64,000 bases of DNA. Source: a virus. The first letter of the stretch is position 1; the number at the start of each line of letters is the position of its first letter. The notes below the pieces were generated by a model. That model had not been told where the DNA came from. It made no database searches and saw only the letters and a program-made list of their open reading frames with translations. The position numbers and the translations under genes were made by a program. Location: positions 4,841 through 68,840 of the IMG/VR virus record IMGVR_UViG_3300045988_093513. One strand, given 5' to 3'. Below, one piece after another: positions 2,013 to 60,770 of the stretch.

Positions 2013-3613
2013 AGAAATACCAATTAGATGGCGTTAATCTTATGAAGAGAAAGGACACATTCATACAGGCTGACAGTATGGGTATGGGAAAGACTGCACA
2101 AGCAATCGAGTACATGAGACAAACTACCGACTGTCACTTTGTTGTAGTGTGTCCTTCTTCTCTCAAGACTAACTGGTGTCGCGAAATCAATGATTGGTTA
2201 GACATAACAGTTCAACCCGATGTCTACACGGGGAATATTATTGTGACTAACTATGAGAAAGTAGGACGCATGATAGATATGATTGGTGATTATGTGTATA
2301 ATTTTAAGGGGGTAATATTTGACGAAGCACACATGATTAAAAACGTATACGCCGGCAGAACGTATGAAGCTAAACGTCTTGTTGATAAAGTTGGCAATCC
2401 AATGATGTTGACAGGAACACCAATATTAAACAGACCCAACGATTTGCTGGGTCTATTGTACGTTGGTGGCAAGCTATCAGAGTTCGGTGGTATTGACGCA
2501 TACACACGGCGATACATTCCCAATGTTGAGAAAGATAACGCCATTTTCTATTGTAACTTTGCACACCTAGACGAGTTGCACAAAAGGATAGAACCTTTTA
2601 TTTGTCGCCGTCGATGGTGTGATGTACACCGTCCAGTATTCCCGATTAAGAAAACGGAAGTTACACTAGGTAGTTTTTCTAACGTCCCATTATCATCAGT
2701 CAACATTACTAACATACAAAAGGTAGAGACTGAGGTAATGAAACGTAAACTACCATTAGTTGTACAATGGATTCAACGAGATTACGATACGCACCACGAG
2801 CCTCTGGTAGTATTTGCTAACCATAGGCAGATGATAGACGTATTAAATGCGGTGTTTCCTAATAGCACCGTAGTGTATGGTGGTATGACGTACAAAGAAA
2901 AGGAACAGAGCGTACAGAAGTTCCTTAATGGTGACGCCGATATTATCCTATGCTCACTAGCTTGTGCTGCTTGCGGACTTAATCTGGTACGTTCTCATAG
3001 AGTTGTGTTCGCTGAGTTCCCTTGGGCTAAAGGGATATACGAACAGGCTATTGCTAGATGTGCAAGACGAGGGCAGACCGAGACGATAGAAGTGTTCGCA
3101 TTGATTATGGAAAACAGTTACGATAGATATAGACTAGAACAAATGAGATGGAAGTCTGCGATAGCAGATGATATTATTGACGGACAGGACAAGAAAGATG
3201 GAAGATATTATCTCGGTAATTTACCGCATAGCGTTCTCGCTTGTCTTGAAGATGGTAGTATAGATACGTCACCATACTTTGGCATGGACATCTACTCCGA
3301 TGAATTTATAATAGCAGTCGCAGAGATGTCACGAGATTGGTTGCTTGCTAATACGCAAGTGAAAGATGACGAGGATATATACTGGGAATGTGTGTTCTGT
3401 TGTTTCACGCAGTATGTATTTGGTACGGCTGTTGACCTGTTGTTGCAAGGTTTACCATATGATTTATCTAACCTAAGCAACATGAATTTACTGGCAGATA
3501 TGTCTGGCTACGGTGTGAAAACATTGCAGACTAGATACACATGGTTTCTCAATCGTTGTAAACAGTTAGGGTTTGACCAGTCGTGGATATTCCTAGCTAG
3601 ATTTCTTACATAA
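2003..3613 (+). CDS. SNF2-family (DEAD/DEAH-like) ATP-dependent helicase
   Basis: Walker A 'SMGMGKT', DEAH box 'VIFDEAHMIKN', SNF2 motif 'MLTGTPILNRPNDL', and a helicase-C region 'LNLVRSHRVVFAEFPW...QAIARCARRGQTETIEVF'. Confidence 0.85.
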   Translation: MFLEKYQLDGVNLMKRKDTFIQADSMGMGKTAQAIEYMRQTTDCHFVVVCPSSLKTNWCREINDWLDITVQPDVYTGNIIVTNYEKVGRMIDMIGDYVYNFKGVIFDEAHMIKNVYAGRTYEAKRLVDKVGNPMMLTGTPILNRPNDLLGLLYVGGKLSEFGGIDAYTRRYIPNVEKDNAIFYCNFAHLDELHKRIEPFICRRRWCDVHRPVFPIKKTEVTLGSFSNVPLSSVNITNIQKVETEVMKRKLPLVVQWIQRDYDTHHEPLVVFANHRQMIDVLNAVFPNSTVVYGGMTYKEKEQSVQKFLNGDADIILCSLACAACGLNLVRSHRVVFAEFPWAKGIYEQAIARCARRGQTETIEVFALIMENSYDRYRLEQMRWKSAIADDIIDGQDKKDGRYYLGNLPHSVLACLEDGSIDTSPYFGMDIYSDEFIIAVAEMSRDWLLANTQVKDDEDIYWECVFCCFTQYVFGTAVDLLLQGLPYDLSNLSNMNLLADMSGYGVKTLQTRYTWFLNRCKQLGFDQSWIFLARFLT

Positions 3614-53254: not shown

Positions 53255-54216
53255 TTACGGCGCAACGGTTGGAGTAATAGTCTCCACGACAACTGGTTTC
53301 GGGTTAACCTTACCAGTCAGGTTCTTAATACGAGCGTTAGCATTCGGTGCGGTACATTCGATAGATGCTACGCCAGTGATTACCTTTTCCTTATAAGTAC
53401 CGACTCTCGGCGGTTCTTCAGTATGGAACGGAATAAGGTAGCCAAGTTTCCAATACTGCGGGTCGAGCAGGTCAACCACATCGTCAGAGTACATACGATG
53501 GGCTTCCAGACGAAGAGAACCAAAGTCAGTCTCGATGATTTCGAGAGAGGTGGTGATACTCTTGTCACCTGCCTGGCGAATCGGCAGTGCACCCTGAGTA
53601 AAGTCGGCGCATCCACGCTTATTACGTGCGGACATAATAGCGACGGACGGGTCGCCACCACGCTGCCAGGTCAGCTGCATTGCGTCATTCAGAAGGTCGA
53701 AAGTAAGGTTGCCCTTAGCAACGTCCTTCGCTGCGTCAATGCAGTTCTGGAATGTGATGGAGCCCATCTTAGTTTCTTTAACTTTACCTTCACCGCTGGA
53801 AACACCATGACCATTTGCGTCATACTTGACGGAGTTCATAGCGCCTTCCGGAGTGTCATACAGATAGAACGTATTAGCGTCCTTAACTGCTACGTAGTAG
53901 GCAACGTTTTCTTTACATACAGCACCACCACGAACGATGAGGGCATCGCCGTTTACAAAGCCGTGGTCGTTCAGAGTGAACTCACCAAAAGCTACGGTTA
54001 CACCTTTCAGTTCATCTTCAAGGAAGTACGGAATACCACCAAAAGTACCAGCAACGTTTTCAGACATCGGGGTTGCAGTGGTGTTGTTTACGATAGCATA
54101 TTCAAGGTCACCTGCGATTTCCTTGCCAGCCTTAACGAACTGGTACGCTACTTCGTCACGAACACCGTACTTTTTGATAGCCTGAGTGATATCAGAGATG
54201 TTATCGTTTGTGTTAA
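53255..54216 (-). CDS. Major capsid protein, 3' exon (the frame continues upstream of the annotated Met with no start codon)
   Basis: The in-frame upstream sequence 'VNTNDNISDITQAIKKYGVRDEVAYQFVKAGKEIAGDLEYAIVNNTTATP' precedes MSEN, and there is no ATG or RBS. A TGA lies at 54218-54220. The gene sits after the scaffold gene in a portal-scaffold-capsid order. Confidence 0.6.
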
Positions 54217-54972
54217 CTCATACTTTCATATGAGACCAGACTATATTATACTTAATCGGTGTTATCGTATAGTCGTTGGGATTTCATACGCTTTTCACAG
54301 TAATTATTTAACCTTTTCTGTTTACGTAAAATATTGAACTTTAGTCCAGATTCTATAAATGACTTTAGGTTCATAGTGAAACTCAGTTGTACTTTGTTTT
54401 TGGTTCGTATTTCTCTTGTCTTACCACACGATACACCAAAGGATTGTAGCATCCTTTTTATATCGTATGTCCAAGAGTATGTAGTTCCGTACCCCATCAT
54501 CCAATTTGTATTACCATTTGGATTGGCACGCTGTGAGACCCAACCATCAGAATCAAGTACACCTTCTAAAAATTCTTTCTTTAACTCTTTGTCCCATTGA
54601 TACACATAGTCTGGGATGTATCTACATCCAGCTGTGTCATCAACGAATATCTTAAATTCTTTAGAACATACTTGAAGATAGTATTTGTTAGTCCCTACCC
54701 TTTGGTGGACTTTCACATCTCTATTGATAAAACGTGATAAGTAATCAGCAACTTTACCAATAAACTCTTTATCAATACATTCAAATGAGTATGCGTACGT
54801 GTTCCCTCTTTTGAAAACACTAGCATCTCCAAAGTAACAACCAAGTAAATAAGCGTATGTCTTATCTGCGGGTTTCCTATTCATAATACATATCCTTTCT
54901 ATTTTTACACTTTGGTAAGAAGGGCTTTAAGGGTTTCCTGCATATGGATAACTTTTATATGGGCAAACATTT
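54217..54972 (-). mobile_element. Putative group I intron interrupting the capsid gene (boundaries approximate)
   Basis: Proposed 5' exon ends in U after ...CATGGG; proposed intron ends in G before TTAACACAAAC. It carries a free-standing LAGLIDADG ORF. Confidence 0.5.
54252..54884 (-). CDS. LAGLIDADG homing endonuclease (double-motif), intron-encoded
   Basis: Motif 1 'AYLLGCYFGDASV' and motif 2 'FLEGVLDSDGWVS'. Confidence 0.8.
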   Translation of the reverse strand: MNRKPADKTYAYLLGCYFGDASVFKRGNTYAYSFECIDKEFIGKVADYLSRFINRDVKVHQRVGTNKYYLQVCSKEFKIFVDDTAGCRYIPDYVYQWDKELKKEFLEGVLDSDGWVSQRANPNGNTNWMMGYGTTYSWTYDIKRMLQSFGVSCGKTREIRTKNKVQLSFTMNLKSFIESGLKFNILRKQKRLNNYCEKRMKSQRLYDNTD

Positions 54973-55279
54973 ACCCATGCATGAACTGCTGAACAGTGTT
55001 GTACATCCAACGTCTCGGCACGGTTTCCGTGGTATCGAAGTTGATAACTTCAGGATGCTTGTTCACCATTGCCGGACGGAGAGAATCTCTCAGCCATTCA
55101 TGTTTAGTGGATACTACGGTAGTTTTACCGAACATCTGTGTAAGTTTAGTTTTATCTGGGTCGAGGTTGGTAATGAAGTCAGACATATCTCTAACAGTAC
55201 CAACGACGTTATAAGAGCGAAGGGCAGAACCTTTATTATGCGGGGCTGCTGCACCTGTAGCTGGCATACCTACTGCCAT
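54973..55279 (-). CDS. Major capsid protein, 5' exon
   Basis: SD AAAGAGAGG lies upstream of the ATG at 55279. The ORF terminates just inside the proposed intron, and its reading frame joins the 3' exon if the two are spliced. Confidence 0.55.
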
Positions 55280-55302
55280 TGAGCTGTTACCTCTCTTTCA
55301 AT

Positions 55303-56048
55303 TTATACGCCAAGCTCTTTCGCAAACCTAGATACGTATGCCGCCTGTTGGTCGTTAGTCATCTGACCAAGCGCAGCGTAGTCCATAGTTTTCTGTGCCT
55401 GTGGCATTGCACCACGGTTATTTGTCGGTTCGACATACGGTGGACGTACCTGCGGCTGGACAGGCCGAGGCATAGGCTGCGGAGCCTGCTGTGGCTGGTT
55501 GCCACGATGATAATACATATTCGATACGGCCTGCATGTAATTGTCAAGCACTTCCGCGTTACCAGTCTTGAGAGCGTCCTGTACTTCCACATACATTTTG
55601 TACGGGAGGTTCTGGAGACTACTCAGAGCGAGCTGGTTAATCGTGTCGAAGTTCGGGTCTTGTCTGTATTTATTAGCAACAGATGCAATTCTTTGAGAAG
55701 CAGCTGCCTTTTCGGCTTCCTGCTGTTTCATTTCGTTAACCCTCTGTAGGGTGGCTGCTTTGACATTACCAACTTCATTGACATATGCTGCCATATGTTT
55801 ACTGTTGTACTCGTCAAAATCTTCACCAAAGAGCTGTTTAACTCGGTCTTTGCAATACGTATCAACCTGGTCGAGGTACGCTCTCTGGTCAGCCATAGCA
55901 CGCTGCTGTACTTCTTCTGGGGACATCTGCGGCTGCTGGGGCTGAACATTCTGGGGCTGAGGGTTGTTCGCAAACTGCTGCATCATCATCTGTCGCTGCT
56001 GTTCGAGAGCCTGACGCTGAGCTGCGAGTTCCTGTGTTTTCCTAGTGT
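55303..56048 (-). CDS. Scaffolding protein, Q-rich C-terminal part (annotated ATG at 55989 plus a ~20-codon in-frame upstream extension)
   Basis: There is no SD before the ATG at 55989. Upstream in-frame 'DTRKTQELAAQRQALEQQRQ' continues the Q-rich repeat pattern up to the TAA at 56050-56052. Confidence 0.5.
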
Positions 56049-56332
56049 CTTAACCTTCGAGTAAAGTCGTTAATTTTACCCCGTCATTCCACAGGAGAAT
56101 GACTGCTGCATATTTCTATGCAGAAGAGACTATTTCTTCACCTTCTCCTTTCAGAGGTCAGGTGTCTGGCACTTCCGTCCACTTGGACGTACTCCCTGCA
56201 ACGGGATAGTCGTTACGGGTTCCCAGCATAGCTGGGCTTCCCACGAGATTGCCCTCGTCTTTACGTTAGGGTGTTCCTCGTTTTCACCAGATTTAAATCA
56301 AGGATTTCTCCAAGAAGTGACCTATTTTGTTA
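56049..56332 (-). mobile_element. Possible ORF-less group I-like intron in the scaffold gene (boundaries approximate)
   Basis: A ~285-nt ORF-free, GC-enriched spacer containing at least four stable hairpins (cccagc/gctggg, cgtcca/tggacg, ctgcat/atgcag, cattc/gaatg). The exons on each side look like halves of one scaffold protein. Confidence 0.35.
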
Positions 56333-56672
56333 AGTCAGCCTGTCGCATATAACCATTACGCATTTCATCCATAGAAACCTGTACGTCCTGTCCATCTACA
56401 CGGACAGTCTGCATTTCCGGCTGCGGCTGTGGTACTTCCTGCGGCTGTTCTTGGACGGGTTCTGGTTCATCATCATAGTCGCCTGTCGGTTCTCCGAAAA
56501 AGGCGTCGGCAAAAGTGACGTCCCCGTTCTCGTCAATACCAAATGCAGGTTCATCAGCGTCATTGTTCTGCGGTGCAGTCTGCGCATCCGGTGTTTCCAC
56601 TGGCGCAGTTGTTGCAGGAACAGGTTCCTGAGCTGGTTCTACCATTGGCATTCCGTTCTGCATTTCTTCCAT
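56322..56672 (-). CDS. Scaffolding protein, acidic N-terminal part (start at MEEMQNG; SD AAAGGAGG)
   Basis: SD AAAGGAGGAATTT precedes the ATG at 56672. The protein is acidic and P/Q-rich. The longer ORF-track call begins upstream of the SD. Confidence 0.55.
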   Translation of the reverse strand: MEEMQNGMPMVEPAQEPVPATTAPVETPDAQTAPQNNDADEPAFGIDENGDVTFADAFFGEPTGDYDDEPEPVQEQPQEVPQPQPEMQTVRVDGQDVQVSMDEMRNGYMRQADLTK

Positions 56673-56789
56673 AAATTCCTCCTTTTTGCACTCCGTAAAG
56701 GTTGGTGCAGTAAAATATATATACGCCAATAACCATGCAAAATTTGTTCGTTAAATAACGAGGTTTTACACGGTTTTGACGAAATTAAC

Positions 56790-56865
56790 TGGCACGGATT
56801 GCTAGAATCGAACTAGCGAATTGCTGGGTCAAAGCCAGCCGCCTTCACCACTTGGCTAAACCCGT
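56790..56865 (-). tRNA. tRNA-Gln (anticodon UUG), with CCA encoded
   Basis: Hand-folded cloverleaf. Acceptor stem ACGGGTT/AATCCGT has one G.U pair. U8 and A9 are present. D-arm is GCC-aagtggtgaa-GGC with G18/G19. Anticodon stem is GCTGG/CCAGC with loop CTTTGAC. T-arm is GCTAG-TTCGATT-CTAGC. Discriminator is G, then CCA. Confidence 0.8.
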
Positions 56866-56886
56866 ATCACTATTTGTATAAGAAAA

Positions 56887-57723
56887 CTACCTATTATTCT
56901 GGTTGTATGCACGCAATGCATTAAATCCACGGATAAGTGGGTCGTGTTCATCGTGATATGCAGACGGGTTTGCATCCCTGTATGTCTGAGCATCAAGCTG
57001 ATAATAGTCAGCAGGGCTAGGCTGTGCATAAGCGTTATCCATAGCGTAGTAGTCTGCTACGGAATTACCTGGCATATCGAAGCCTTCAGAAGAACCAGTG
57101 GAACCAGAGTCATCTGGTACACCAAGCGCCATAGCATCCTGAGCAGCTGCCGGTCCATAGTTCTGCCGCATAGCAGCTTCATACTCCATCTGCTTACGAA
57201 GTTTTTCTCTTTCATACGCTTCATACTGAGCCTGTGTATGGTCGATACCACCATTGTTTACAAGGTATTCATGCATACCCCAGTTCATCGGTGTCTTATC
57301 ACGGTTAGCAATTTGTTCGTCTGTCCATCCTGCGTCTTTCATAAGCTGAATACCTCTATCGTTGATAGTATCGCCAGTATTAGCATATGTCAGCGGTGCA
57401 TTAGGTGTACCAGAAGGTAAATTACGTGTAGCAAATTCATAAGAACCGGCCTTAGGTGTCGGCTTCAGCTGACTACCGTTATCGATAGCTGCCTGCCCAC
57501 GGTTAGCGGACCGTACCCAAGCGTTACTATCATCACGGGTCGGTGCCATAAACCTATTACGAATACGTTCACGCTCTTTGTCATATTCAGACATGGGAGC
57601 GTTTTCCTGTGCAGTTGGCGTACTGCCATGAATCTGATTGTAAACATCTGTGAGAGCTTTAGCTGCTTCATATCTTTGAACATCCGCCTGTCGAGGGATA
57701 CTCCTCGTATACTTAATTGCCAT
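56887..57723 (-). CDS. Hypothetical head protein (between the portal and scaffold genes)
   Basis: 278 aa; start overlaps the portal stop. Confidence 0.55.
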   Translation of the reverse strand: MAIKYTRSIPRQADVQRYEAAKALTDVYNQIHGSTPTAQENAPMSEYDKERERIRNRFMAPTRDDSNAWVRSANRGQAAIDNGSQLKPTPKAGSYEFATRNLPSGTPNAPLTYANTGDTINDRGIQLMKDAGWTDEQIANRDKTPMNWGMHEYLVNNGGIDHTQAQYEAYEREKLRKQMEYEAAMRQNYGPAAAQDAMALGVPDDSGSTGSSEGFDMPGNSVADYYAMDNAYAQPSPADYYQLDAQTYRDANPSAYHDEHDPLIRGFNALRAYNQNNR

Positions 57724-60700
57724 TAATAACCTCCTACTCCATTAGTCGGTTCAGCAGGTGCGCCATTAGGAACCCTATTATCGGCTGGCTGCTGACCAAT
57801 TTGTTTGTCTGGAGAGAGGGCGTCACTACCTTGTCGCACAGTAGAAGTGACCGCTCCTCCTGCTCCTTGTGGTGCAGATACATTCTGCATAGGAACCGTA
57901 CTCTGACCAGTGTTGTTTGTATTTGTTGGTAACGTATGATTCAAGAATACTACCTGCACATAGGGGGGGAGTGAGTAGAGAACCTGAATCGGTAACGAGC
58001 CATACTGGAAGTAGTAAGCCACAACATCAGGGGGGAGAGTCTGAAGTGTTGCCTGAATGATTTGTGCTTCAAGCATAGTACGCTGTTGCGCAACAACAGG
58101 GTCAGTAATATAGTCACCTGTATTTTTAATACCCATATTTTCCATCCAACGTTTCGTGATGTTATAAATGTTATGTGGAGTTGCAACCGCAACACCAGTA
58201 GCGTTTACTTGCATGATAGCAGTCATGAGCGTCTGAAGCTGGGTATTCATAGCTTCTTTACTCTGGATGGAGAGACCAGCGTTTACAACCAGATCGAAAG
58301 AGCCAGACAAGTCATCTGGTTTGATTTCCATTGGTTCCCCTGTTAATCGAATAACAGTGTTTTGGTCAATAAACTTTTGGTTCAAAGATATAAGAAAACG
58401 ATATAGTTCATATACACCCGTTTCAGCAAACATACGAGCAATAAGTTCCAGTCGCTGATTAGATGCATTCATGATGGTATTGATACCGCTTGCTGTGTTA
58501 TGTGTTACGGTATAGTGTTTGCCTACGCAGAACTGACCATCTTCGGCATCAACAGTTAAACACCGCATTGGAATAATATCGGTCGGTTCGATTAATACTA
58601 TTTTAACCCTATCAACACTACGTTTAGACTGTACATACTTGTTTGCTTTTCGGCTTAATCTAAATGGATTATCGAGGCAACTAATAGTTAAATGCCAATA
58701 TGTACGACCTTCTTTAGCTAACTTGCCAGGGAATTGCTCTGACTTAGAATAATTCCAGCCAAAGGAACAAATCAAGCGTTCTACATCGTCCAATAACTGC
58801 CCGTTTGCTTGAGAGAAAATAGCCAACGAACCAGAATGGTGACAACCATCAGTGTCCATAAGTCCACGAAGAAGTTCCATACGCTGTCTATAAGAAGCAC
58901 TAAAGAAAATCTCCGGTATGTGTTTACAGTTATCTTTCATGTCGTCGTATCTTGCATCGCGGGCAATGTGTAGTTTTCTAAGGATGGTGTGCAAGTCTGT
59001 GCCAACTATGTCATACGTAATAGCCTTTCCTGCGTTTTGGTGTGAAGACGGTCTGATAAAACCACCTCTGAACTTTGCCCATTCGGACATGGCGTCCACT
59101 ATTTCTTTATCCATTGAGGTAAAGCGATTGGTGTGTAAGCAGCCGTCGCCCAAGAACACACCGAGGATATACGGGTCTATTGGTAATTCAATATCACCGT
59201 TGTTATCAGGACGGTATACCCTGTCAATAAACAATGGCTGTTTATACTTGTGCGCCAACTGGAACAAAGTGTCGGTATCAATGGTTTTACGTTTCCTATG
59301 AGGGCCAAACACTGTCCACAAATGTTCTCCGCCCGCTTTAAGGACTTCGCCGTTAGAGAACTTGATTTCATATGCTCGTTCTGGGTCATGAATAGTATGG
59401 GCTTTAATAACCATGGTCGGTTTACCATTCTGCCCAACAATCATATCACCGTCAACAATGTCTTTTAACAGCTTACTGGAACCGTTGGCCATCGGGACAG
59501 GCGTATTGATGTCTAGCATTTTATTCAAACTGGAAGCATCAAGACCTTGGTTATATCGCGTGACGCCTGTACGCTGTTCCTTCTGTCCCTCAGTCCATTC
59601 GAGAAAGTTGAACGTATAAGGAGCAATCTGGTTGACAGGCATAGACATTGCAACGTCATTCATCTGATACCCTGGCTTCTTACGAATGACGGCACGACCT
59701 TTGTTGAAGTCATCAACATTGATTGCGTCTGGTGCCAGAATCATCTTAGGGTCATTCGTCAGTGCTAGGTTGTGGATAATCTGACGAATCAGTGCCACCT
59801 TCAAATTCTGGATTTCACCAACGAGTTCGGCATAAGAACGCTTAGACCAAATACGGTGTGGGTCTTGTGTCGGGGAAATAGCGAAGAATGGATGTCTACC
59901 CATATAGTTTGGTTCGCAACGAAGGATATGGTCTTGGCACAGTGTGATAATCATATCCTCAAGGATACCATCACCATTAATATCAATTTTCGTATAACAC
60001 TCGTACAGAGTAACCTCTTCACGGGCTTCTTCTGCGGCAGAGTGGAAACCATAGTATTGATCGCCAAGCACCTCTTCCATTTCTGTATCAGCTTCATCGA
60101 GTCCGTATTTTGAGTGCCAATGCTCTGACTTTATCTCATCAACGTTAGCATATACGCCCTGTCGTTCCATCTTTCTGAGGTAAGACATAGTAACCCGTTT
60201 CTTATGAGCAACAAAGTTTGCTTCATCAAGAGTTTTTGCGTCTGGCGAATACAAGAAATCAGAAATAAGAATGTTCTCAATCTTTGGAGCATTCTTCAAA
60301 TAAAACGTGGAGTCGTAAATAACAGTATAATCGCCATACTTATCGGGGGCAGAGATAGATTCGACCTTTACACCAGTGTTAATCAGGGCTTGTAAGCTCT
60401 GAAAGTTGAGAACACACTGTACAGGTTCATAGCCCTCCTCTCTGTCCCAGTAACATTTAACAACACCAAGACCAGTAATGAGTGCATCTTTCATCCAATT
60501 ATACAGAATCGGGTAGAAATGGTTCTGTCTCTGTAACTGGAAAGAAATAAGGTCTTGCATAATCTCTGCGTTATGGTCATCCTGCGCATCTACACCAGAG
60601 ATACTGATTACACTCTCCCCGCCGGTAAATACCTTCATGAGCGATGGCAATGCCCATTCAATAGTATCTGTTACATCGGTAGATACTATAGATGATGTTT

Positions 60701-60770
60701 TACTAAGCTTTGGGAACATCTTTTTGTAATATTCTTTATCGGCAAAGTAAATCTGATATCGCTCTTTCAT
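57723..60770 (-). CDS. Portal protein carrying a ~328-aa LAGLIDADG intein
   Basis: Portal-like N- and C-terminal regions with an inserted intein (see the mobile_element entry). The annotated ATG lacks an SD, and a strong SD lies 114 nt upstream in frame. Confidence 0.75.
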   Translation of the reverse strand: MKERYQIYFADKEYYKKMFPKLSKTSSIVSTDVTDTIEWALPSLMKVFTGGESVISISGVDAQDDHNAEIMQDLISFQLQRQNHFYPILYNWMKDALITGLGVVKCYWDREEGYEPVQCVLNFQSLQALINTGVKVESISAPDKYGDYTVIYDSTFYLKNAPKIENILISDFLYSPDAKTLDEANFVAHKKRVTMSYLRKMERQGVYANVDEIKSEHWHSKYGLDEADTEMEEVLGDQYYGFHSAAEEAREEVTLYECYTKIDINGDGILEDMIITLCQDHILRCEPNYMGRHPFFAISPTQDPHRIWSKRSYAELVGEIQNLKVALIRQIIHNLALTNDPKMILAPDAINVDDFNKGRAVIRKKPGYQMNDVAMSMPVNQIAPYTFNFLEWTEGQKEQRTGVTRYNQGLDASSLNKMLDINTPVPMANGSSKLLKDIVDGDMIVGQNGKPTMVIKAHTIHDPERAYEIKFSNGEVLKAGGEHLWTVFGPHRKRKTIDTDTLFQLAHKYKQPLFIDRVYRPDNNGDIELPIDPYILGVFLGDGCLHTNRFTSMDKEIVDAMSEWAKFRGGFIRPSSHQNAGKAITYDIVGTDLHTILRKLHIARDARYDDMKDNCKHIPEIFFSASYRQRMELLRGLMDTDGCHHSGSLAIFSQANGQLLDDVERLICSFGWNYSKSEQFPGKLAKEGRTYWHLTISCLDNPFRLSRKANKYVQSKRSVDRVKIVLIEPTDIIPMRCLTVDAEDGQFCVGKHYTVTHNTASGINTIMNASNQRLELIARMFAETGVYELYRFLISLNQKFIDQNTVIRLTGEPMEIKPDDLSGSFDLVVNAGLSIQSKEAMNTQLQTLMTAIMQVNATGVAVATPHNIYNITKRWMENMGIKNTGDYITDPVVAQQRTMLEAQIIQATLQTLPPDVVAYYFQYGSLPIQVLYSLPPYVQVVFLNHTLPTNTNNTGQSTVPMQNVSAPQGAGGAVTSTVRQGSDALSPDKQIGQQPADNRVPNGAPAEPTNGVGGY
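58497..59480 (-). mobile_element. Intein with LAGLIDADG endonuclease domain in the portal protein
   Basis: N-terminal Ser, block B 'GEVLKAGGEHLW', LAGLIDADG motifs 'LGVFLGDGCL' and 'LLRGLMDTDGCH', and C-terminal 'TVTHN' followed by a Thr +1 residue. Confidence 0.65.

Follow-up and report, generated by a model that had tools for sequence, protein, structure and literature searches.

The locus examined here raises the question of whether two neighbouring open reading frames (ORFs) in the head module of a phage are independent genes, or the two exons of a single gene that is interrupted by an intron. The window, i.e. the whole stretch of DNA that was analysed, has a length of 64,000 nucleotides, and the genes across 52-61 kb of it all lie on the minus strand. 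According to the ORF list, the upstream frame (56672..56322, minus strand) encodes 116 amino acids from its ATG, or 135 if counted from a TTG at 56729, and the downstream frame (55989..55303, minus strand) encodes a Q-rich protein of 228 amino acids. The first-pass annotation had proposed that these frames belong to one scaffold gene split by a small structured intron without an ORF, partly on the grounds of their translation signals, and these signals are as it described them. A strong Shine-Dalgarno-like AAGGAGG (56678..56684, minus strand) is read from the sequence 6 nt upstream of the ATG at 56672, and no such sequence precedes the ATG at 55989, where the upstream letters are GCGTCAGGCTCTCGAACAGCAGCGACAG. 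The frame of the 228-aa ORF remains open for exactly the 20 further codons that had been counted (56049..55990), until a TAA at 56052..56050. No promoter-like or terminator-like site was found on the coding strand between the two ORFs.

A search with the 361-aa product of the joined frames against 5.8 billion proteins revealed that the best homologue, P0001, is an uninterrupted protein of 361 amino acids that is 94% identical over 100% of the query. It is followed by further full-length homologues, the identity falling to about 30%. In the close relatives the scaffold gene encodes one continuous protein of 346-375 amino acids, and the arrangement that would speak for separate genes, with the two halves encoded independently, was not borne out by the comparison. 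The junction predicted for the spliced product, NGYMRQAD-Y-TRKTQELA, is identical to that in the uninterrupted homologues. An alignment of 18 homologues places it within the most conserved motif of the family, where it cuts a codon mid-way; the motif G-Y-x-R-x-x-D/A-Y/F-T-R/K-K is read through in 17 of the 18, and the remaining sequence, P0009 (228 aa), corresponds to exon 2 alone. Exon 1 (56333..56672, minus strand), whose limits follow from the ORF list and from the junction fixed against intronless homologues, comprises 113 codons from the ATG at 56672 plus the first base (T) of Tyr-114. Exon 2 (55303..56048, minus strand) begins AC-ACT-AGG, completes Tyr-114 and continues for 247 codons to a TAA, and it is 96-97% identical to exon 2 of intronless relatives. 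The 116-aa ORF had been taken for the N-terminal half of a scaffolding protein; it does constitute the N-terminal part, but amounts to a third (113 of 361 codons) and not to a half.

The function of the product is indicated by a profile match and by the position of the gene. Residues 39-140 of the spliced product, a region that spans the junction, match PHROG 3927 ('head scaffolding protein') with an E value of 1.2e-14. The gene order is portal, 278-aa gene, tRNA-Gln, scaffold gene and major capsid protein (MCP), in which the portal and the MCP belong to SU10 Pfam families; no Pfam family was found for the scaffold protein itself. Together, these comparisons support the assignment of the 116-aa and 228-aa ORFs as the two exons of one putative scaffolding-protein gene.

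Two other features lie between the portal and the scaffold gene. The 278-aa gene (56887..57723, minus strand), for whose protein no Pfam family was found, is conserved in position, with 271-272 amino acids in the relatives L001 and L003. The second feature, a tRNA-Gln(UUG) gene (56790..56865, minus strand), separates the scaffold gene from the 278-aa gene and is conserved in L001. The idea that this tRNA serves the Q-rich scaffold gene was considered and the link found to be weak, because the gene has 48 CAG codons against 4 CAA codons.

Neither megablast of positions 55000-57000 nor tblastn with the spliced protein matched any of 50,697 GenBank phage records, and a search with the capsid exons returned only matches of 24-28% identity in LUZ24-like and other podophages, so that there is no usable cultured relative. 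When the window's 228-aa ORF was looked up in the assembly index as an exact match, nothing was on record. The phage is a member of an uncultured human-gut lineage.

The sequence between the exons is a group I intron of 284 nt without an ORF (56049..56332, minus strand), which starts UAACAAAAUAGGUCAC and ends GGUUAAG. The structure-based scan gave a match to Rfam family RF00028 over the full length of the model (model positions 1-253; 56341..56106) with 84.5 bits and an E value of 6.5e-21, the curated gathering score being 50 bits, and this is the sole RF00028 match at the gathering threshold within the 64-kb window. Most of what the first-pass annotation had said of this spacer is in agreement with the analysis. 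It contains no minus-strand ORF of at least 30 amino acids, and it is packed with stable hairpins, as its minimum free energy of -90.4 kcal/mol compares with -71.7 +/- 4.7 kcal/mol for 200 shuffled sequences (z = -3.95), none of which is as stable. The GC enrichment ascribed to it holds with respect to the window (46.1% versus 42.4%) but not with respect to the flanking exons (52.1% and 50.0%).

A secondary structure comprising P2, P3, P4, P5/5a, P6/6a, P7, P7.1, P7.2, P8/8a, P9, P9.1 and P9.2 was drawn by hand, and all of its pairs are canonical except for two U-U mismatches in P2. P1 is formed between the exon sequence UGACU (56337..56333) and the internal guide sequence GGUCA (56318..56322, minus strand; intron nt 11-15, read from the sequence), and the wobble pair U56333-G56322 marks the 5' splice site. 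An in-frame UAG (56324..56322), 9-11 nt into the intron, is shared between the P1 loop and the guide, which it overlaps. P6a is a hairpin, CCCAGC-UAU-GCUGGG (56222..56236, minus strand; nt 97-111). P7, the presumed guanosine-binding helix, consists of a 5' strand GACUA (56207..56211, minus strand; nt 122-126), aligned to the conserved GACUA block of RF00028, and a 3' strand UAGUC (56128..56132, minus strand; nt 201-205), aligned to its conserved AUAGUC block. A P10 pairing between the start of exon 2, ACACUA, and the bases 5' of GGUCA was sought by hand and none was convincing; P10 is weak in some phage introns.

Two additional hairpins, P7.1 (UCCC/GGGA, nt 127-140) and P7.2 (CGUCC/GGACG, nt 144-157), are located between P7 and the 3' strand of P3. 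Their presence at this place counts as the criterion of Michel and Westhof, from 1990, for subgroup IA, to which the introns of T4 td, nrdB and nrdD belong. Judged by these hairpins and not by a subgroup-specific model, the predicted fold has the P7.1/P7.2 layout of subgroup IA and is T4 td-like.

The proposed helices are supported by covariation. A covariance model, R1, was built from three close sequences (those of the window and L007 and the copy in L004) and yielded 65 matches in IMG/VR loci fetched by a core 17-mer, many of them in phage contigs of 120-160 kb. In an alignment of 57 distinct sequences, 92.2% of the cells pair, compared with 37-44% when the partners are slid by 1-3 columns; because the alignment was fitted to R1, these percentages lean high, but the gap to the controls is still large. 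Changes on both sides were found in 66 of the 72 pairs, and none of 500 shuffles reached the observed values. P7.1 and P7.2 are paired in 98.4% and 97.8%, respectively, among the 57 relatives, and each of their pairs shows compensatory changes. A composite of L002 whose 5' end had been borrowed was left out of the model and of the statistics.

Some of the IMG/VR contigs recovered through the core 17-mer harbour several related group I introns, three or four of them within 1-5 kb. In L089 (4450-5457) three are arranged in tandem, and four are found in L073 (2226-3362 and 6861-7220), a locus from a 162-kb contig. At low stringency in blastn, the P7-P9 core is similar to introns that adjoin genes for HNH endonucleases, thymidylate synthase and ribonucleotide reductase in many cultured phages; among the cultured phages of INPHARED, none matches more than 74% of the intron length in blastn.

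The splice sites can be assigned to the nucleotide. The last letters of exon 1 are ...GCT GAC T (56333) and those of the intron ...GGUUAAG (56049), after which exon 2 opens with AC ACT AGG (56048), and this is the single pair of sites that gives both an open frame and a G-terminated intron, i.e. a 284-nt intron and a 361-aa product. The 3' splice site follows the terminal guanosine (omega-G, 56049..56049, minus strand), assigned from the intronless homologues, since G56049 provides the only junction yielding GAC-TAC-ACT (..AD-Y-TR..) as they have it. With U56333 as the last exon base and G56049 as the last intron base, the junctions conform to the U...G rule that had been invoked for them. In L001, the contig that encodes P0001, the DNA reads gct gat tat act agg aag, and the window reads gct gac t (intron) ac act agg aaa. 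The spliced junction predicted for the window is GGCTGACT/ACACTAGG (the slash marks the splice site here and below) or, in a longer form, ATATGCGACAGGCTGACT/ACACTAGGAAAACACAGG. It differs from every intronless allele seen, which are GATTATACTAGGAAG in L001, L003, L005 and L006, and GACTACACGAAAAAA in L004.

A comparison of relatives at this site reveals three states. The site is empty in L001, L003, L005 and L006, and in the more distant L009/L008. The ORF-less intron occupies the same scaffold site in L007 (99.6% identical) and L106 (100%), and in L002 and L107 the same intron at the same site carries a 167-aa NUMOD4/HNH_3 ORF in its P6a loop. The L107 sequence includes the 5' junction, and the L002 contig begins inside the intron. 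No intron-encoded endonuclease is present in the 284 nt of the window's copy, and tblastn with the L002 ORF detected no homologue of that HNH protein, either cognate or free-standing, in the 64-kb window.

Individual relatives show further variation around the site. L003, which is intron-minus, has a free-standing 108-aa HNH-like ORF (2470..2796) that lies between the scaffold gene and its 271-aa neighbour. Over 45 amino acids this ORF shares 42% identity with the intron-encoded HNH protein of L002, and it is absent from the window. The scaffold gene of L004 (3334-3365) has no intron, yet displays the intron-type flanks GAC T/AC, and just downstream of the site it reads ACG AAA AAA (TKK in place of TRK). 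This allele could be the result of precise intron loss, or it could be endonuclease-resistant. L004 also has a sister copy of the intron in its capsid gene.

The exon sequences next to the intron bear on its mobility. Intron-plus alleles have in common three synonymous differences, at -2, +2 and +11, with respect to L001, L003, L005 and L006. Between the window and L007 there is 1 mismatch in the 284 intron bases and none from -39 to +62, in exons that otherwise amount to 62 mismatches in 1086 bases (about 6%); the chance of such an island of identity is about 4e-9 (binomial). The island around the intron is homing-like, as it resembles the footprint expected of homing with co-conversion, or of recent recombination, and it shows that the intron moved between diverged genomes. 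Presence and absence at one exact site, combined with apparent co-conversion of the flanks, and the sister copies in other genomes mark the intron as a mobile element.

The covariance model, the uninterrupted homologues, the presence and absence at the exact site and the covariation support the reading proposed at the outset. We consider it very probable that a late head-scaffolding gene is interrupted in the window by a group I intron of 284 nt that lacks an ORF and shows the P7.1/P7.2 layout of subgroup IA.

The alternative that survives best, to which we give a small chance, is that of a decayed intron that has lost self-splicing, so that the gene is broken, or a helper protein is needed, or the parts work separately. 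Splicing is indeed a prediction, and the intron has neither an endonuclease ORF nor a clear P10; however, every core helix is intact apart from the two U-U pairs in P2, and the score lies far above the threshold. Copies that are identical or nearly so are found in at least two further assemblies (L007 and L106), whose head modules are otherwise intact. A scaffold protein is normally essential for head assembly, so a dead copy in its gene would be lethal.

It is scarcely credible that the two ORFs are independent genes, one for a small acidic protein and one for a Q-rich protein, with a structured non-coding spacer between them that acts as a regulatory RNA or processing site. Against such an arrangement stand the close homologues, which are single proteins of 346-375 amino acids, the most conserved motif of the family cut within a codon, a second ATG without a Shine-Dalgarno sequence, and a spacer that the covariance model recognizes as a full group I intron. 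These outweigh the facts that both ORFs start with ATG and were called mechanically, and that a public gene caller predicted the 228-aa ORF separately in a relative (P0009). Joining of the ORFs by the ribosome through translational bypassing or frameshifting, as in T4 gene 60 and without RNA splicing, would accommodate their different phases and the stop that closes the first ORF right after the junction, but we regard it as extremely improbable, given that the 284-nt gap is far longer than the 50 nt of gene 60 and constitutes a canonical ribozyme, whose splice site has the U-G pair and whose last base is G.

For the scaffold gene interrupted by a group I intron, we infer the following course of splicing from the anatomy described above. 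The late transcript would fold such that exon UGACU pairs with the guide GGUCA in P1, the U-G wobble marking the splice site, and a free guanosine bound in P7 would attack after U56333. G56049 of the intron would then take the place of the guanosine, and exon 1 would be ligated to exon 2, which would recreate the TAC codon of Tyr-114 and produce the mRNA for the 361-aa scaffold. Unspliced RNA is predicted to yield merely the 116-aa fragment because of the in-frame UAG near the start of the intron. As for its spread, the window's copy would probably be mobilized in trans by the HNH protein of sister copies during co-infection, or else by recombination of the flanks.

A second location of this intron lineage was found in relatives. 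In L004/L083, L104, L105 and L108, an ORF-less copy of 275 nt that is 82% identical to the scaffold intron interrupts the major capsid gene (L004 4417-4691 = L083 6671-6944), and it scores 313 bits with model R1. This degree of identity and this score show that the scaffold intron and the capsid copy share ancestry, and the lineage thus uses two genes. The two targets, GCTGACT/ACACTAGG in the scaffold gene and CATGGCT/ACAACATC in the capsid gene, both split a Tyr codon as T/AC and have 7 of the 8 bases between -5 and +3 in common, and they are alike only over the few bases that pair with the guide (TGACT/ACA versus TGGCT/ACA). The guide reads GGUCAC in the scaffold copy and GGUCAU in the capsid copy, which matches its own exon, AUGGCU, with one extra A-U pair; the guide of the capsid copy therefore differs from that of the scaffold copy in accordance with its own target.

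Because the resemblance of the targets is confined to the guide-pairing bases, the pattern expected of ectopic transposition, the lineage may have jumped between the neighbouring scaffold and capsid genes by reverse splicing, and not by means of a homing endonuclease that recognizes a long site. We put this forward tentatively, as a possibility on the doubtful side. If it is true, the lineage would provide a natural system in which the same ribozyme occupies two sites, with and without an HNH protein, and in which the mobility routes would be directly comparable.

The window itself contains two other insertions in its head module, both of which had been named in the first-pass annotation and were recovered here. 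An insert of 768 nt (54205..54972, minus strand) divides the capsid gene (Pfam SU10_MCP) into exons at 55279..54973 and 54204..53255 and carries a 210-aa LAGLIDADG ORF (54884..54252). The junction CAT GGG T/AT AAC ATC encodes ..FMHG-Y-NISDI and matches the capsid protein of L002, which is intact at 418 aa. A pairing of the exon end AUGGGU with GCCCAU in the insert is feasible and would place a U-G at the site, and the last base of the insert is G. The Rfam score of this insert is just 17.5 bits and concerns its 3' end (54217..54352). Membership of the window's capsid insert in the lineage of the scaffold intron was considered and rejected, given this low score, the fact that R1 matches only the scaffold intron, and the finding of no second copy by blastn. 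The nucleotide of the capsid gene at which it resides hosts the sister copy in the relatives, so that one site is used by two unrelated introns.

The portal gene (57723..60770, minus strand) encodes 1015 amino acids, of which residues 418-758 form a 341-aa insert; the 701-aa portal of L001 lacks this insert, which contains a LAGLIDADG_3 domain at residues 630-697. The insert starts Met-Leu-Asp, with no Cys or Ser at position 1, and ends THN/T. The motifs GGEHLW, MRCLTVD and TVTHN, read by eye, look like the Trp-Cys-Thr signature of class 3 inteins. The portal intein, the scaffold intron and the capsid intron amount to three selfish insertions in the head module, as anticipated, and they are located within about 7 kb.

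The scaffold intron can be compared with those of known phages. The group I introns of T4 td, nrdB and nrdD/sunY belong to subgroup IA2. They have P7.1/P7.2, a U-G pair at the 5' splice site that is soon followed by an in-frame stop, and a final G, and their endonuclease ORF, when present, is looped out of a peripheral helix; I-TevI is a GIY-YIG enzyme. In the same manner, the element of the window is a group I ribozyme of small size that resides in a protein-coding gene of a phage, and its lineage has the T4 features listed. By contrast, its host gene encodes a virion scaffolding protein, whereas those of T4 encode enzymes of nucleotide metabolism; the window copy has no ORF, and the endonuclease of the sister intron is of the NUMOD4/HNH type and not, like I-TevI, of the GIY-YIG type.

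Introns in late structural genes have been described elsewhere. Cluster J mycobacteriophages have group I introns in capsid and tail genes, and lactococcal phage Tuc2009 has one in its capsid gene (PMC3706429). The Cluster J introns are present in some members of the cluster only, one of them has a homing endonuclease, and they are reported to splice during late expression (PMC3706429). The scaffold intron shares with these the location in a late structural gene and the patchy presence, but it belongs to another lineage with other hosts, and the genes concerned there are capsid and tail genes, no scaffold-gene intron being described (PMC3706429). A literature search for a group I intron in a scaffolding gene found no report. 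Uncultured crAss-like phages of the human gut are rich in such elements, and core genes of theirs (MCP, TerL and PolB) carry group I introns and inteins, the introns having been found through their endonuclease domains (PMC7886860); an ORF-less intron like that of the window would escape a survey that relies on such domains. The window resembles these phages in having an MCP intron, a portal intein and a scaffold intron within about 7 kb, but it is not itself crAss-like: its portal and MCP belong to SU10-type Pfam families, and its relatives have genomes of about 65-70 kb.

The intron is an ordinary kind of phage element and not a new kind; what had no precedent in the literature search is its host, a scaffolding gene, in an uncultured lineage, which extends group I introns to the gene for a scaffolding protein. 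For annotation, it means that gene callers break the gene up into two 'hypothetical protein' entries of 116 and 228 aa, as happened in the public relative P0009, and that ORF-less introns of this type are invisible to surveys that seek endonuclease domains. The relatives form a compact natural series that begins with an empty site, passes through introns first without and then with an HNH ORF, and ends with a copy in another gene, where the target looks similar, and this series is suited to the study of how phage introns spread and how they lose their endonucleases.
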